From: Curvularia clavata
Taxonomy: Eukaryota
Length of the DNA stretch: 64,000 nt
Direction: 5' to 3'
Assembly: GCA_023920165.1 (NCBI GenBank)
Contig: CP089276.1
Span: forward strand, 2,418,001 to 2,482,000
Of the stretch, positions 2,725 to 14,655 are shown piece after piece. The stretch's first letter is position 1, and each line of letters starts with the position of its first letter. The position numbers were made by a program, and so were the translations under genes. The notes beneath the pieces were generated by a model, which was not told the origin of the DNA, searched no databases, and saw only the letters and a list, made by a program, of their open reading frames with translations.

Positions 2725-3467
2725 TGTGTCAGTTATGTAGACTTTGCTTTGTCCAGTGTGTAGGTCAGTCATAGTATATAGGATGACAGATACATGGGCT
2801 GAATTTGTTCACATACTGATCTCTAAATCCTTGGCTACCGTGCAATAAATGTGTTTTGGGGGAGAGCAGTGAGATATGGGTTTGAGTGCACTATGAATAA
2901 ATACAATAGAAGTGCACAGGACGCAGAAAAAAATATCTTACTATATTCCTCTGGGCTACTGCAGCTGTAATGGTCATACGGCGGGGACATCTATGAGAGC
3001 CATAGAATTGCAACCGGTCTACGAAGGTGCATGACTAAGCGGGAAGCATGATAGGGTCTGTGTTTTGTCGGTCCAAAGGATGGATACGGATTGCGAACAT
3101 TCTGGTCCGCCAAGACTGGTTGACTGGAGACGGTTGAATCCGTCTAAACTGTTTGTGAGGGGGAGAGCAGCAGAGGCACAGAATGTTCCATGGTCCTCGT
3201 GGAAGACTTGATGTAGCATACAGATGTCCGGGATAGTGCACGGCTGCCTACCGTGGCTATCGGCCAATGGCGTTTATGCCGAGTCTACAATGTCGAATAG
3301 AGCAAGTTTTCGTTCCTTGTCTCAAACGACGTGCAAATCAAATAGGGAACGTCTGGAGCACAAGGTGATTGCAAATGGCGAAAAAAGTGGTATTTCCCGA
3401 ATGATATCCGTAGCGCCAACCCAATGCATACATATCTTTTACACCAATATACAGGCAGTTAATTTCT

Positions 3468-7510: not shown

Positions 7511-10500
7511 CTACTCAATCTTCATCCTCTCAAACTGCGCAATACTCGCCTCCCAGTTCTTGGCCTCAAGCTCCGCAGTCTTGAGCTTCTCCTGCTCCTG
7601 CTCCTTGACGGCATCACTGACCTTTTGCCCCCACGCCTCATCCATAATCTTCTTCTGGCGCGCAATCGTCTCGTTGGCTTTTGTGAGGCGGTCCTGGGCC
7701 TTTGTGATTTCCTTGTCAGGCTCAATCCGGCCCTTGACGTCGAGGTACGCGGTCGCTGACGTGCCAATCGTGTAAACGGCGCAGCCTGAGGGTGCAGTCT
7801 CCGAGGGCGACAGGATCTTGATGTCGGACACGGTTTTGCCGGCCAGCGAGCGGATGGAGGGGAGAGAGGTGGGCGAAGCAAGAGTCGAGTGTGTAGCATC
7901 CTGGAGGGCCTGGATATATGTGGATGCGCCCTCCTTGATGCCATACTCAGCTGTAAGAGAGCGGAGAGCCTTTGCGCTGTCGACAAGAAGCTCGTACTCG
8001 TTGTTTGCAGCCTCGTCTTCCATCTCTTGCGAGTATTGTGGGAAAGGTGCAATGGTGATAGAAGGTGTCTTGTCACCCTGCCTTCGGGGCAGTCGCTGCC
8101 AGAGCTCTTCGGTCAGGAAGGGCATGAATGGGTGAATCATGTTCAGACCACCCTCAATAGCAGTGTAAAGTGTTTGCTTGGCGCTCTCCTTTTGCTCTTC
8201 GCTTCCCTCGTCAAAGATGGCTTTGCTGTTCTCAATGTATGTGTCGCAGAGGTAGTTGTAGAAGTACTTGTAGGCAACCTGGGTGGCAAGACTGAACTCG
8301 CGTGCCTCCAGGTGGTCGTTGATCTTCCTGGCTGCGGCATTGAGCTGGTGTAGGATGTAGCGCTCAGGCAGAGACTCCTTTCCGCTCTTTGCGACCTTCT
8401 CCCGAGGTGTGAAAGAATCTCCCAGGCGTCCAATGACATACTTGGTGGCCTGGTAGATCTTGTTACAGAACCTTCTGTATCCGTGGATGACGTTGACGTC
8501 GAATGAGATGTCCTTCCAGACTGTTAGCATCGTATGCATTATATAAGATGATCATAAACTTACTCCACCACCGGTGGTGTATCCGACAAGCGCCATGCGC
8601 AGAGCATCGGCACCACACTCAGGAATGCCCTGAGGGAAGGCTGTCTTTTGATACTTCTCGGCCTTGGTCAACTCTTTAGGGTCCAGGTTACCTGCACGAA
8701 GCTGGTCATGAAGCTTCTGCAGAGTAATACCATCCATGATGTCAACAGGGTCAACGACGTTACCCAATGACTTTGACATCTTCCTGCCCTCGGAGTCACG
8801 AATGAGAGAGTGGCAGTAAACCTCCTTGAAAGGAACCTTTCCTGTCAAGTAGAGGGACAGGAAAATCATCCTGGCAACCCAGAAGAAGAGAATGTCCCAA
8901 CCAGTCTCGAGGACGGAAGTAGGGAAGAGCTTCTCCAAGTCGGCAGTCTGGTTTGGCCAGCCTAGAGTAGAGAATGGCCACAGACCAGAGGAGAACCATG
9001 TATCGAGGACATCCTCGTCTCGCGACAGTGTGAACTTCTTGCCAGGGAATTTCTTCTCGGCCTTTGCTCTTGCCTCTTCTTCTGTGCGGCCAGTGATCCA
9101 AAGCTCGTCTTCACTTCGGTCGCCCTCGCCGCCTTCCATCTGGACAAAATAAGCGGGGATTTGGTGACCCCACCAGAGCTGACGCGACAAACACCAATCC
9201 TGGACGTTGTTCATCCAGTGCATGTAGATCTTCTCAGAGGTAGCAGGCCTGATCTTGATGTCGCCTTTCTCGACGGCTTCGATAGCAGGCTTGGCCAAGC
9301 CCTCCATCTTCATCCACCATTGTGGCTTCATGATGGGCTCGATGACGTCGCCAGATCTCGAGCACATAGGTACCTTCATTGGATTTGGCTCAGTCTTGAC
9401 GAAAAGACCCTCCTTCTTCAGTGCATCTACAACGCCGTAACGAACATCGAAGCGCTTCTGGCCCTCGAAGGGGCCAGCATTCTTGTTCAGAGTTCCATTG
9501 TCGTTCTGCACACATTAGCACTATGTAGGAAGGCTGTCAGAAAAGGAAAAACTTACAAGAATGTTGATGAACTCGAGATTGTGCTTCTTGCCCAGGTTGA
9601 AATCGTTGGGGTCGTGTGCAGGTGTCAGCTTCACAGCTCCAGTACCAAACTCAGGATCCACGTATTCGTCGGCAACAATGGGCATGAGGCGGTCAATGAA
9701 TGGGTGCTTAGCCTTCTTTCCGACCAGGTGCTTGTAGCGGTCGTCTTTGGGGTGAACGGCGATACCTGAATCACCAAGCATGGTTTCGGGACGTGTGGTA
9801 GCAATCTCGATGAACTGGTCGGTGCCATCAATGGCGTACTGCAGTGGTTGTTAGCGACTTTTTGATCTTGTTTTCTTTTCAAGACCCTGCTCCTCATACC
9901 TTGAAGTGAGTAAGAACACCGAACTCGACCATTCTCTCGTATCCCGGAACGGAAAGCTTAGTTGGGCCTGGCAAATCCTTGTTGTCGACCTCAAGGGCGC
10001 TCAGGGCTGTGTTCAAGGCTGTGCACCAGTTCACCAGTCTGTTGCTCCTGTAGATCAGGCCATCTTCATGAAGACGGACGAATGTCTCTGTTACAGCCTT
10101 TGATAGGTTTTCATCCATGGTGAAGGCCTCACGCGACCAATCGAAGGATCCACCCATCCGACGCAGGGTGTTGGTAAGATGTTGGTGGTACTCTTCTTTC
10201 CACTCCATAGTTCTCTCCAGGAACTTCTGACGGCCCAGGTCGTATCTTGTCTTGTTCTCTCTCCGCTTCAACATCTTCTCGACAACGGACTGAGTGGCAA
10301 TACCTGCGTGATCACAACCAGGGAGGTAGAGTGTAGTGTAACCCTTCATCCTGTGCCATCTTATGAGAACGTCCTGAAGACTGGTCGCGAGGGCATGTCC
10401 ACAGTGCAGCTTGCCGGTGACGTTGGGTGGAGGAATGGGAATGACGAAGTGACCGGCTGGTTTGACATTGCCATCCTCTGCGAACTGAGGCTTGAAGAAA

Positions 10501-11141
10501 CCCTGAGCGTCCCACCAAGCGTCCCATGCGGACTCTACGACTTTGGGAATGTATGCCTTAGTGTACGGACCATCCAAACTCTGAAGACGCTTCTTCTCGC
10601 CCTTGGGTGTCTCCTCGACGTACTCGGGGAGTTGCTCCTCCTCTTTGCCCTTCTTCTTCTTCTCCTTGCCTGAAGCGGCACCACCATCCTTGGCTGCACC
10701 AGCAGCAGCCGCCGCTTTCTTAGCCTTGAACTTGGCGTCCTTTTCAGCCTTTTTCCTCTCCTTCTCCAGCTCCTTAGCAGTCTTCTCCTTCTTCTCTACA
10801 CCCTTCTCATTCTCACGGCCAGGCGCACTTTGGCCAGTAGCTTCTTGACTGGCTGCATTGAGAATGTCTTTCTTGGCTTCCTGGCTCAGCTCAGGCGGTG
10901 GGGCGGTGTTGGGGGCCGTCTTATCACCGGTCGTGTTGTGGGAGGAGGCATTGAGCGCCATGGTGGGAGTTGAGTAGTAGTGTTGGTGTGTGAGCACGCG
11001 CTCAGCGTGAGCCGAAGTGTGAGGGTGGAGTGCAGTGTAGATGCGGGATGGCAGTTGTAACCTGTGCCGGGAGGGATTGATATATGTTCGATTTGGTCTG
11101 CAAGCAGCGCGCAGTGTAGTGGGCGCGGAGCGGGGCAACAT
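7511..11141 (-). CDS. VAS1: Valyl-tRNA synthetase, 4 exons; likely mitochondrial (ATG 11141) and cytosolic (ATG 10961) isoforms
   Basis: [13 protein letters not shown] (HIGH-type), [34 protein letters not shown] and a C-terminal coiled coil. Confidence 0.97.
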
Positions 11142-11162
11142 TAACAAAAAAGTGACTGGGTG

Positions 11163-11499
11163 TGAGTCTTCAAAGTCCGGCGTGCGTCACCCCCACATTG
11201 AGTCCGAGCGTCTGATCTGACCCCGCCAATGCATCTAGGGCGAACGGTTCCGTAGACCTCAGGACGTGCATTCCACTGAGATGAACTATTCTCCAAACAA
11301 CTATTAGTCCAATACATATACGGTTAGCATCACGAAGGCATTGAAGCAACGATGTGCTCATTTCATAGCAACATATGCATAGCTGAGAGCATTCAAGGAA
11401 CACTCCATCCAGTATTCAGGTGACTCCATTCAGCATCCGAGTGATTCCAGTCACATTCCAGTCAACATTCAATGACTCCAATCGATATTCCAATGACTC
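11163..11499. promoter_or_regulatory. Cluster of TGACTC/GAGTCA-type Gcn4/CpcA-like elements upstream of VAS1
   Basis: TGAGTC at 11163 and 11199; TGACTC at 11421, 11473 and 11494; TGCGTCA at 11183. Confidence 0.55.
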
Positions 11500-11824: not shown

Positions 11825-13058
11825 TCATGCCGCTGTGCTGTTCTGCTGCGCAGCCTGTCGGACGGGAGCAAAGTAGGGATGTGCCATTGCCTCCTGGGCA
11901 GTGAGTCGTTCCTTGGTGGTGAGTCAGTAAAAGAAAAAGTGAAAAAAAAGCGATGGAGTCAAAGCTTACCTGGTGATCATATCGGAGCAGCTTATCGAGG
12001 AAGTCAATGGCATCGTTGCTGACAAAGCGCTGGTTCTCGGCATTGATGAATGAATGCCAAGGTTTCTTGGGATACCGACTAAGTATATCGTCATATTGAG
12101 CATCCAGTTCAATGTCGTACTTGTCAAGGTAGTCGAAGAGGTCCTCTGTGCCGAGAACCTTTGCAATCTTGACGAGCTGGTCCGAGTTGCTGTTGCCGTG
12201 GAAGAAAGGTTCTCGCCTAAAGATCATGGAGGCAAACATGGCACCCAGGGACCACATGTCGAGGGAGTAGTCGTACTCCTGGAAGTCGACGAGCAGTTCG
12301 GGACCCTTGAAATAACGAGAGGCAACGCGGACATTGTATTCGGTTCCTGCGTGATAGAATTCGGCTAGACCCCAATCAATCAAACGCAACTAGGCTGGGT
12401 TAGCGGGGGGGACGTCTGGGCCAGTTTATTACAGCTTTGCCCACCTTTCGTTTCTCGTGGTCAATCATGACGTTGTGAGGCTTGACATCACGGTGCATGA
12501 TGCCCTTGCTGTGGCAGAAGTCGAGGGCCTTGAGCAGCTCGAAGATGTAGTATCGCACATCGTAGTCCTGGAACTTTGGGTAGAGGCTGCGGAAGTCGGT
12601 GTTGTTGACGTATTCGAAGATGAGCGAGGGAGTTTTGCTCTGGAAGGGGCATGTTAGCACAAGTCGGCAGGCAGACAGCAGTGCGCGAGACGCAGTACCC
12701 AGTCGCCCAGCCAGTCGGAGCCGTCACTAACCTGGTTATCGCGCACCACGTCGAGCAGCGAGACGATGTTGGGGCCGCCCGACAGATTTTGCAGGATCTT
12801 GATTTCGCGCTTTATCTTCTTCTTCTTAACGGGCTTGAGGACCTTGATGACGCACTTCTGGTAGTTGACGACGTTGATGCCCTCAAAGACCTCGGAGTAC
12901 TTTCCGCGGCCAATTTTGCGGACGACCTCGTAGTTTTCCAGCACGCCCCACGAGATGTTGACCGAGTCGTAGTCCCAGTAGGAGCGGGGCATGTTTGCGT
13001 TGACGTCTGCGTAGACGCGGGCGACGCTGGTGGCGCCGCTCGAGTTGTTGAGCGCCAT
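11825..13058 (-). CDS. CKA1: Casein kinase II catalytic subunit alpha, 4 exons
   Basis: [59 protein letters not shown]; spliced C-terminus [28 protein letters not shown]. Confidence 0.98.
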
Positions 13059-13624
13059 GGCGGGCGGGTGGATAGAGGGCTTGTCGTTGTGGTGGTGGTA
13101 GTAGTAGTGATGGTGGGCTGCTGAGGGCGAGGCCGAGGGGTCGCGTGGTGGGGGGGAGAAGCGGAGGCTGGCGGGACCACACAGCAGACGGGCGAGGCCA
13201 AGGGCGAGGCCAGCAACAGCAAGCACGGCGAGGGCTCGTGCTGCCTTTGTCCAGGGAGACAGACGCCCAACGAGGCAGAGACGACGGGCACGACGAGCCG
13301 GGAGTGGCTGGTGCGGCCGGGGCAGTGGCGGCGCAAGAGGACGGGTTGGGTGGTGCGGCTCGTCCGGGGCGGTGTCCAAGTCGTGGTGGTGTTGGTGTTC
13401 TGCGTCGTCGTGGGCTTGTGGGCGTTAGTCTTAGTCCGAGCTTGGCTAAGGTTTTCGATGCCCTGCCCGCCCTGCCCGCCATACTCGTCACGGGCGGGCA
13501 TACATGCATGCGACTTGACTTACCCAGATTCTTTTGCTGATTGTTCCGCCGCCTACGACGTCGCGTCTCTCCTCGTCGTCCACTCTCCGCTGCGCGCCCC
13601 GACGACGCCATTGCAATTGCGCAA

Positions 13625-14655
13625 ATGTTCCACGACTTGCACGTTCCGTGGACTGATGCGACCCGCGAACTGCAGCGCACTGTCGCTTTTCTCGATGAAT
13701 GTGAGCAGCCGTGTCCCTGTAGGCTGCTGCCAGAGCTGAACTGATGCAATGCAGTAGGATATGATGTAGTTGCCCTTACCCACACATACTCCGGGCGGCT
13801 GCCTGCCGATATAGTAGGTACCCGATTAGTCGCCTTCACCTTCACTGCGCCGCCCCGCTCACCATTGACCACCAGACCTCGCCGGTGCCCTCCAAACTAC
13901 CCTTCCCCGTCCCCAGTCGCATGCGCATACTGCGCCGCTGCAACATCTTCCTAACCGACGCTGCTTCCAACTTCCGCATCCCCCAACTGCAGCAGCACTA
14001 TGACCTCGTAGCCGCGCGACCCACCGACGAGCGAACCCTTCAGCAGGCATGCCAGAGCCTCGACGTAGACATCATCTCGCTCGACTTGACCCGTCGCTTC
14101 GAGTCACATTTCAAGTTTCCCATGCTGGGCACCGCCATATCCCGCGGAATCAAGATTGAGATTGGCTACAGCCAGGGCATCATGTCCAACGATCCCGCCG
14201 CAAAGCGCAACCTGATCTCCAACGCCGTCCAGCTCATACGTGTAACACGGGGGCGCGGCCTGATATTCAGCTCAGAGGCAACCAGTGCGCTAGGCATAAG
14301 AGCACCTGGCGATGTCATCAACCTAGCTTCCGTATGGGGTCTCGGGACAGAAAAGGGCAAGGACGGCCTCACAAAAGAGGCAAGAAGCGTCGTCGAGTTT
14401 GCGCGACTGAAGCGCCAGAGCTTCAAAGGCATAGTCGACATTATCCACGGCGGCGAGAAGCCAGTGCACGAGACCAAGGACAAGCAAGCACAAAAGGGCA
14501 AAGCAAACAAGAACCAGAACGGCAAGCGGCCAGGAGAGAACCTGGATTCTTCTCTCGGGCCCGACACAAAAGCTGAGAAGCCCGTCTCGAAGCGCCAGCA
14601 AGCCAAGAATAAAAAGGCAAAGGTGCAGGGAGCTGGACAAGAGCAGTCCGCGTAG
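13625..14655 (+). CDS. RPP1: RNase P/MRP subunit p30 (Rpp1/RPP30), 3 exons
   Basis: Spliced N-terminus MFHDLHVPW...ELGYDVVALTH, YDLVAARP, DIISLDL, RGIKIEIGYS, GRGLIFSSEA...IRAPGDVINL and a Lys-rich tail; divergent from CK2 alpha. Confidence 0.9.

Follow-up and report, generated by a model that had tools for sequence, protein, structure and literature searches.

The gene for the alpha subunit of protein kinase CK2 lies on the minus strand of a 64,000-nucleotide stretch of Curvularia clavata DNA (contig CP089276.1, positions 2,418,001 to 2,482,000; hereafter the window, in which all coordinates are given). Comparison with relatives indicates that the bases directly upstream of the AUG of this gene (13059-13414) probably make up most of a conserved N-terminal extension of CK2 alpha that begins at an AUG, and that alternative starts would give rise to a soluble and a membrane-tethered form of the kinase. 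A preliminary description of the window, made from its letters, had pointed out this extension and proposed that it was translated from a UUG codon. The present analysis indicates that translation of the extension most likely begins not at a non-AUG codon but at a conventional AUG, located in a small exon further upstream. The features on which this rests are as follows.

13609 to 13611, minus strand: AUG of the proposed exon 1, in the context gcaATGg; the Met start is aligned in 8/8 N-termini
13524 to 13611, minus strand: proposed exon 1, 88 nt, 29 codons plus one base (phase 1), encoding an Arg-rich peptide ending ..QKNL
13415 to 13523, minus strand: proposed 5′ intron, 109 nt, phase 1, with a GTAAGT donor, a CTAAC branch point at 13428-13424 and the acceptor acaAG
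13059 to 13414, minus strand: extension-coding part of exon 2, 118 codons plus the split Ala codon; an open frame to which relatives align in frame
13191 to 13235, minus strand: hydrophobic core of 15 uncharged residues, with R before it (K three residues further up) and R after it; RLLCG comes next
13056 to 13058, minus strand: AUG of soluble CK2 alpha (MALNN..), in the context gccATGg; Met in 45/45 Pleosporales-type sequences

Composition of the leader frame

Translation of the minus strand over 13427-12700 reproduced the anatomy given in the preliminary description. A TAA at 13427-13425 is followed by 122 sense codons (13424-13059) without Met and then by MALNNSSG at the ATG 13058-13056, and the hydrophobic run at 13235-13191, the RLLCG motif and the basic patch RRARR..R..K..R are all present as described. 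The openness of this frame alone is at chance level. G+C makes up 69% of the leader and C alone 48%, and 25% of dinucleotide-preserving shuffles (n = 3000) contained no in-frame stop (P = 0.25). Both remaining minus-strand frames have 0 stops over 366 nt, compared with 1, 4, and 1 in the plus-strand frames. With all three sense frames stop-free, the earlier caution that openness is weak evidence was justified. The hydrophobicity of the frame is a different matter, as its best 19-residue Kyte-Doolittle mean of 2.26 was equalled in 0 of 3000 shuffles, only 0.4% of which reached 1.6. At this position the +1 frame (1.87) and one antisense frame (2.47) also score as hydrophobic, so that a single sequence cannot decide the question.

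Conservation of the extension and its helix

A 231-residue frame consisting of the extension and the first kinase exon was used as the query against a protein collection, yielding 5062 matches among 8000 candidates scored, and the counts on database relatives given here rest on the best 120 of these 5062 matches. Among them, 44 Pleosporales-type frames, called on unspliced or partly spliced contigs, continue in frame for at least 45 residues ahead of the Met, another 21 have the Met itself as their first residue, and one (P0034) has 40 residues and begins inside the helix; no frame among the best 120 terminates between the helix and the Met. The consensus around the window's extension reads ..GLFGR..PWNKAAALGVLAGLALLLLRPA.LRFFTPP.DPS.., and the aligned extensions follow a common order of basic cluster, (F/S)PWNK, hydrophobic run, R, LRF(F)(T)PP.DPS and a variable Pro/Ser/Thr linker of ~20-30 residues.

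All 28 extensions of at least 100 residues, the window included, have a 19-residue Kyte-Doolittle maximum of at least 1.72, which in 28/28 ends 30-48 residues before the Met (residue-shuffle p ≤ 0.028). The hydrophobic helix, whose conservation the preliminary description had put forward as a check, is thus kept in every full-length extension. The remaining 17 of the 45 compiled extensions mostly begin inside the helix, as does P0025, a spliced frame of a relative derived from a metatranscriptome. The helix sequence itself is strongly divergent across lineages (P0053, P0067, P0037, P0054), with its hydrophobicity and the K/R bounds on both sides retained, which points to selection on a protein segment and not on a conserved nucleotide element. 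Judged by these comparisons, the leader stretch looks like real coding sequence. Pfam found 0 families in the extensions, and the ESM Atlas gave no usable match. A search for longer proteins carrying the window's extension returned no matches, this being a weak search with query words low in complexity, and a profile of the window and L001 (a relative described below) extensions, run against 1.84 billion representatives, returned one spurious 1745-aa match.

A proposed upstream exon and 5′ intron, conserved in relatives

The TAA that bounds the open frame at 13427-13425 sits within the CTAAC branch point of the proposed 5′ intron. On the minus strand, the layout is ATG (13611) .. CTGG / GTAAGT .. 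GACTAAC GCCCACAAG / CC CAC GAC, with slashes at the splice sites, and the first two bases of exon 2 complete an Ala codon in the CK2 frame. An alternative acceptor, ttAG near 13452, was rejected because the splice falls in another frame. The same layout is found in L001, a 160-kb metagenome contig of a relative, with a 52-nt exon (counted from the second of two in-frame ATGs), a 91-nt intron, the same GTAAGT, CTAAC, and acaAG signals and the same phase. Neither the 109-nt nor the 91-nt intron is a multiple of 3 in length, and each has stops in frame; in both cases splicing brings back the CK2 frame.

Eight N-termini (the window, L001, P0122, P0121, P0003, P0035, P0002, and P0015) were aligned. 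An [LIVT]R.R motif stands just ahead of the donor in seven of the eight, and four prokaryote-style frames that read past the donor show 'GE', the expected translation of G/GTGAG. A region-restricted search with P0003 recovered two GenBank proteins with the whole head, and a cluster look-up recovered a third.

OAL07672.1: Phaeosphaeriaceae sp., 472 aa, exon 1 spliced
SNOG_04516 / XP_001794932.1: Parastagonospora nodorum SN15, 474 aa, exon 1 spliced
KAH7086821.1: Paraphoma chrysanthemicola, 508 aa, intron read through

In the spliced models OAL07672.1 and SNOG_04516, exon 1 (..DTKK / ..CTKN) joins S(T)SS(S)LHDD.. directly. All three models resemble the window in carrying the exon 1 motif, HDD.., the basic cluster, the helix, LRFF.PP, the linker, and the kinase; they differ in being automated models named 'hypothetical protein' or 'Pkinase-domain-containing protein', and the window's extension is only partly similar to theirs. 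As long models are already in GenBank, the coding potential is not new to databases. The arrangement described here also accounts for the ~130-residue difference among database models of the same gene.

These results bear directly on the earlier claim that the extension is AUG-less and non-AUG-initiated, which is not supported, since the conserved upstream exon supplies the AUG at 13611 through a frame-preserving 109-nt intron and two GenBank models are spliced in the same way. The UUG on which that claim was built does exist in good context: TTG 13379-13377 (minus strand) lies in cacgacTTGg, where -3 and +4 are both G, and no in-frame near-cognate codon of exon 2 precedes it. A conserved near-cognate start, which had been suggested as a further check, was not found in L001, the only relative with DNA. 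The Leu codon aligned to the UUG there reads CTC, which is not near-cognate, and ahead of the helix L001 offers just two in-frame near-cognates, an ATC at the edge of the exon and a poor-context CTG. Amino-acid conservation also continues upstream of the UUG, through the HDD.. motif, into exon 1.

Transcription of the leader

RNA contigs from four runs belonging to four studies were mapped over 12300-14300. Those of CK2 skip the two CK2 introns at 12390-12444 and 12640-12731, identifying them as transcript contigs, and they reach in the 5′ direction to 13415 (X1, depth 446), 13394 (X2), 13380 (X9), and 13076 (X10). The helix-coding part and the UUG are therefore present in the mRNA of three runs (X1, X2, and X9). 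The preliminary description had held that a transcription start downstream of about 13235 would speak against its proposal; the leader is transcribed beyond that point, to 13380-13415, in these three runs. Contigs cannot map a transcription start. The ends of X2 (13394) and X9 (13380), which carry no loose letters, fit a cap site near 13400-13420, and no contig from the four runs lies over 13416-13490. The match of X1 ends exactly at the acceptor AG at 13415 and is followed by 28 further letters, for which no window match (up to 3 mismatches) and no shared 11-mer was found there, and no shared 12-mer in L001-L080. In the mRNA sense these letters end in an in-frame TAG, and their length is near the assembler word size.

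The sequence 13059-13414 would double as the AUG-free leader of a proposed abundant short mRNA. ATG is absent from all frames of the exon 2 leader both in the window (356 nt, P = 0.17) and in L001 (326 nt, P = 0.09), and the fold of the leader RNA is unremarkable (z = -0.82). An AUG-free leader without unusual structure is consistent with a leader that is scanned by ribosomes. Compared with organism A, the leader has only one single-nucleotide polymorphism, at 13335, a third-position change of CTT to CTC. A CAC/TAC repeat (His/Tyr codons) at 13077-13123 lacks 6 nt (2 codons) in the organism A RNA contigs (X1 and X2) relative to the window, a length polymorphism inside the extension.

Predicted membrane-anchor features of the extension

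The preliminary description had read the extension as a signal-anchor, and the sequences of the relatives support this architecture: the hydrophobic helix is conserved with its basic flanks, and a Pro/Ser/Thr stem comes after it. The region preceding the helix is ~90 residues long and highly charged. The uncharged core of the helix is 15 residues in the window, with a median of 17 and a range of 15-23 apart from a run-on in P0037. A core this short suits endoplasmic reticulum (ER)/Golgi anchors, and a peripheral or cleaved segment would also be possible. In 25 of 30 sequences, the N-side of the helix has a higher net charge than the C-side; the two sides are equal in 3, and the order is the opposite in 2. 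The flanks of the window's own helix carry +3 (N) and +2 (C). According to the positive-inside rule, the more positive flank of a membrane helix stays in the cytosol, and together with the N-side charge excess this predicts an N-in/C-out orientation, with the kinase luminal or external. N-x-S/T sequons occur in the linker of 17/45 sequences against 8.1 expected, a count uncorrected for kinship, and the window's own linker has none. This mild enrichment is suggestive only. A further N-x-S/T sequon lies just after the MALNN Met in 39/45 sequences.

The CK2 alpha kinase and its neighbours

The kinase downstream of the extension and the gene that diverges from it are arranged as follows.

11825 to 13058, minus strand: CK2 alpha coding region, 342 aa; introns 12640-12731 and 12390-12444 seen in RNA, 11912-11969 placed by homology
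13491 to 14655, plus strand: RNase P/MRP subunit p30, divergent neighbour (PF01876, E = 2.3e-49), with its ATG at 13626 and introns 13701-13754 and 13814-13875

By its sequence, the kinase is an ordinary CK2 alpha. The first coding exon of the window matches PF00069 with E = 3.7e-11 (E = 9.6e-64 for the full-length relative P0122) and is 96-99% identical over its 109 residues to proteins named casein kinase II subunit alpha in P. nodorum, Ophiobolus, and others, and the assembled coding sequence of 342 aa has a C-terminal end like that of named CK2 alpha. The gene belongs to the Pleosporales type; Parastagonospora nodorum and Ophiobolus disseminans provide the best named matches among the best 120. 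In CK2 alpha of this type (13023-13058, minus strand), V, I, or L replaces the Met of the MARVY start, and the protein starts 11-13 residues upstream of the MARVY position, at a conserved MALN(N)[ST][ST]G. Three GenBank Pleosporales CK2 alpha models (P0049, P0051, and P0121) retain 13 residues (VSDGSDWIGDW..) of the first kinase intron, 12640-12731, which is fully spliced out in the RNA contigs here.

Contigs of the RNase P p30 mRNA start at 13491/13493 and carry plus-strand GT..AG junctions, which places the p30 5′ untranslated region (UTR) antisense to CK2 exon 1 and part of its intron. The start codons of p30 (13626, plus strand) and of CK2 exon 1 (13611, minus strand) stand head to head, 14 nt apart, and the head-to-head p30/CK2 layout is likewise present in L001. 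Downstream of CK2 alpha and on its strand, the adjacent gene encodes a class I tRNA synthetase (9897-11186, minus strand; PF00133, E = 1e-69). Two GenBank 'valine-tRNA ligase' models inside the CK2 alpha cluster (P0127 and P0128, of 1593 and 1099 aa) are probably merged models of CK2 alpha and the neighbouring tRNA synthetase.

A model with two transcription starts and its alternatives

We propose that the two forms would be made from one gene by alternative transcription starts and not by leaky non-AUG initiation. The abundant short mRNA would begin near the acceptor, at about 13395-13415, so that the first AUG is not included; ribosomes would then scan an AUG-free leader of 357 nt to the AUG at 13058 and produce a soluble enzyme of 342 aa and 39.9 kDa. 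A long mRNA, rarer or condition-specific, would start inside the RNase P gene, and removal of the 13523-13415 intron would join exon 1 (13611-13524) to 13414. Its predicted product has 490 aa and 56.3 kDa, with a head of 148 residues and 16.4 kDa that would run from an Arg-rich start through a His/Pro/acidic stretch, the basic cluster, the helix, LRF(F)(T)PP.DPS, and the Pro/Ser/Thr linker to the kinase. The helix would be a single hydrophobic segment of 15-23 uncharged residues, and the long form would be expected to keep its N-terminus in the cytosol, with the kinase then facing the lumen or the exterior. The anatomy of the sequence, its conservation in relatives, and the transcription of the leader are shown here; the long mRNA, its translation, its membrane insertion, and its topology we infer.

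Several points weigh against this model. The persistence of the frame in relatives is partly selected, because gene callers report only open frames. Full-locus DNA comes from one relative, L001; among the 80 metagenome loci listed, those of the Pleosporales type are L001 (full) and L002 (37 codons). Identity between the window and L001 by codon position is 0.56, 0.58, and 0.45, a divergence too high for a codon-substitution test. The junction from 13524 to 13414 was not seen in the contigs of the four runs, which is a lack of support and not a disproof because contigs drop rare forms. The tail of X1 could be either an assembly tip at the true 5′ end or the acceptor joined to an exon outside the window. 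Newer P. nodorum models and most Pleosporales GenBank models begin at MALNN (P0051; P0064, with 484 members). The long CK2 mRNA would need to start inside the RNase P p30 gene, and the shortness of the hydrophobic core makes membrane spanning uncertain.

Three other explanations were considered. The one closest to the preliminary description is that UUG 13379, or another near-cognate codon on the abundant mRNA, starts a form ~11.6 kDa larger while the remaining ribosomes reach the AUG at 13058. Conserved near-cognate-initiated extensions exist in Pezizomycotina, as a study of cpc-1 describes (PMC5487733). Here, the abundant contigs include the UUG with up to 36 nt upstream, its rank as first in-frame near-cognate of exon 2 and its G at -3 and +4 are favourable, the leader has no AUG in any frame, and the extension is conserved as protein. 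We nevertheless regard this explanation as improbable, since the codon is CTC in L001, with only the edge ATC and the poor-context CTG there to replace it, and since conservation runs upstream through HDD.. into an exon with a conserved AUG. The UUG, moreover, is among the weaker near-cognates, lies only ~15-36 nt from the apparent 5′ end, and is not aided by any unusual leader RNA structure (z = -0.82). Because the AUG exon is present, non-AUG initiation is also unnecessary, although it may still have a part as a minor route. It is decidedly improbable, in our view, that the leader is a plain, long, C-rich 5′ UTR, in which the frame and the hydrophobic run arise from composition and the frames of relatives from nucleotide conservation and gene callers. 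The chance-level openness (P = 0.25), the two other open sense frames, and the hydrophobicity of the +1 and one antisense frame all agree with such a UTR, as do the apparent start of the abundant mRNA downstream of exon 1, the start at MALNN in most annotations, and the lack of a Pfam family or usable Atlas match for the extension. Composition would not, however, hold the helix at a fixed distance in 28/28 extensions despite sequence turnover or conserve its K/R flanks and charge asymmetry, and the observed hydrophobicity was matched by 0/3000 shuffles. Nor does a UTR account for an exon and intron that differ in length and yet preserve the frame in two genomes, with a conserved peptide motif in exon 1.

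Finally, the long protein might be the main or only CK2 alpha, with the Met of MALNN internal and the 5′ ends near 13415 being assembly breaks. X1 does stop exactly at the acceptor AG, and its tip has the length, about k-1 letters, that a graph branch would leave; the canonical MARVY Met has been lost in Pleosporales. The 28 letters of X1 are not exon 1, however, and X2 and X9 finish cleanly, at 13394 and 13380, in the way that coverage runs out near a true 5′ end. The MALNN Met, present in 45/45 sequences and in strong context, and a leader that is AUG-free as if scanned make this the least probable explanation, and we consider it highly improbable. The model of two transcription starts, with an AUG-initiated extension on the longer mRNA, is the one that we favour.

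Hydrophobic heads outside Pleosporales

Pleosporales may not be the only fungi whose CK2 alpha has a hydrophobic head. Two Chaetomiaceae-like loci, L074 (~300-440) and L076 (~2870-3010), and P0071 from Corynascus similis have an in-frame AUG 46 codons before MARVY. Its context is AAAAA[A/C]GATGC, and a signal-like hydrophobic run (..VCPSLALLTSLALSP..) comes next. Between L074 and L076, the CK2 frame has 27 identical, 7 synonymous, and 8 non-synonymous codons, compared with 2/12 and 3/17 synonymous/non-synonymous in the other frames, and identity falls upstream of that AUG. Models from Aureobasidium (P0079-P0083, L018) and Coniocarpon (P0075) have AUG-started heads of 74 and 87 residues that begin with hydrophobic runs. 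The Aureobasidium, Coniocarpon, and Chaetomiaceae heads may be further cases of this kind and are treated as candidates, with no homology to the Pleosporales head assumed.

Discussion

The arrangement proposed for CK2 alpha has a counterpart in yeast SUC2 invertase, where a longer mRNA adds an upstream AUG and a hydrophobic targeting sequence and a shorter mRNA encodes the cytosolic enzyme. It differs from SUC2 in that the upstream AUG has a small exon of its own, which overlaps the 5′ UTR of a divergent gene, and in that the long mRNA is predicted here. In animals, the Golgi casein kinase Fam20C, an acidophilic Ser/Thr kinase, sits behind an N-terminal hydrophobic segment. An anchored CK2 alpha would be similar to it in facing the lumen if the N-in topology predicted from the flanking charges is true, although the two kinase families are unrelated.

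CK2 is regarded as a soluble kinase of the nucleus and cytosol. For the rice blast fungus, it has been reported in nuclei, nucleoli, septal pores, and an appressorial ring (PMC6478894). Full-text searches of open-access papers found none describing a transmembrane or signal-bearing fungal CK2 alpha, and none was found for SNOG_04516 by full-text search. A 'signal anchor' hit (PMC1266030) was set aside because it refers to Leishmania CK1 and not to CK2.

Plants provide a case in which an N-terminal extension re-targets an ordinary CK2 catalytic subunit, the plastid CK2 alpha (cpCK2/pCKII; PMC2679645, PMC2988416). The preliminary description had mentioned some plant CK2 alpha proteins with hydrophobic extensions; the plant parallel is instead this plastid CK2 alpha, reported to carry a transit peptide and not a hydrophobic anchor. 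The plant extension is thus a transit peptide from a separate paralogue, while the head described here has a basic-flanked helix and would come from the alternative first exon of a single gene. The cpc-1 extensions of Pezizomycotina are closer in form, since the cpc-1 leader, like that of CK2 alpha, is long, AUG-free, open in the main frame, and conserved as protein. In cpc-1, however, the near-cognate codons are conserved and stand in conserved strong contexts (PMC5487733), whereas the candidate codon of CK2 alpha is not conserved and an AUG exon exists. Casein kinase is not mentioned in the main text of that study.

One general lesson is that an overlooked short 5′ intron can make an ordinary AUG-started isoform look like a case of non-AUG initiation. 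At its fullest, the proposal would be that Pleosporales, and perhaps other filamentous ascomycetes with hydrophobic AUG-started heads of their own (Chaetomiaceae, Aureobasidium, Coniocarpon), have a type II-anchored CK2 alpha that faces the ER/Golgi lumen or the cell surface and is expressed from an alternative promoter within the RNase P gene, a conjecture that we consider rather unlikely in this full form. A conserved membrane-helix isoform, if true, would mean a second, tethered pool of the pleiotropic CK2 in a large order with many plant-associated species. If the predicted topology is also true, CK2 activity would be present inside the secretory pathway, and a single gene would supply both the nuclear and cytosolic enzyme and a fungal 'casein kinase' of the secretory-pathway or ecto type.

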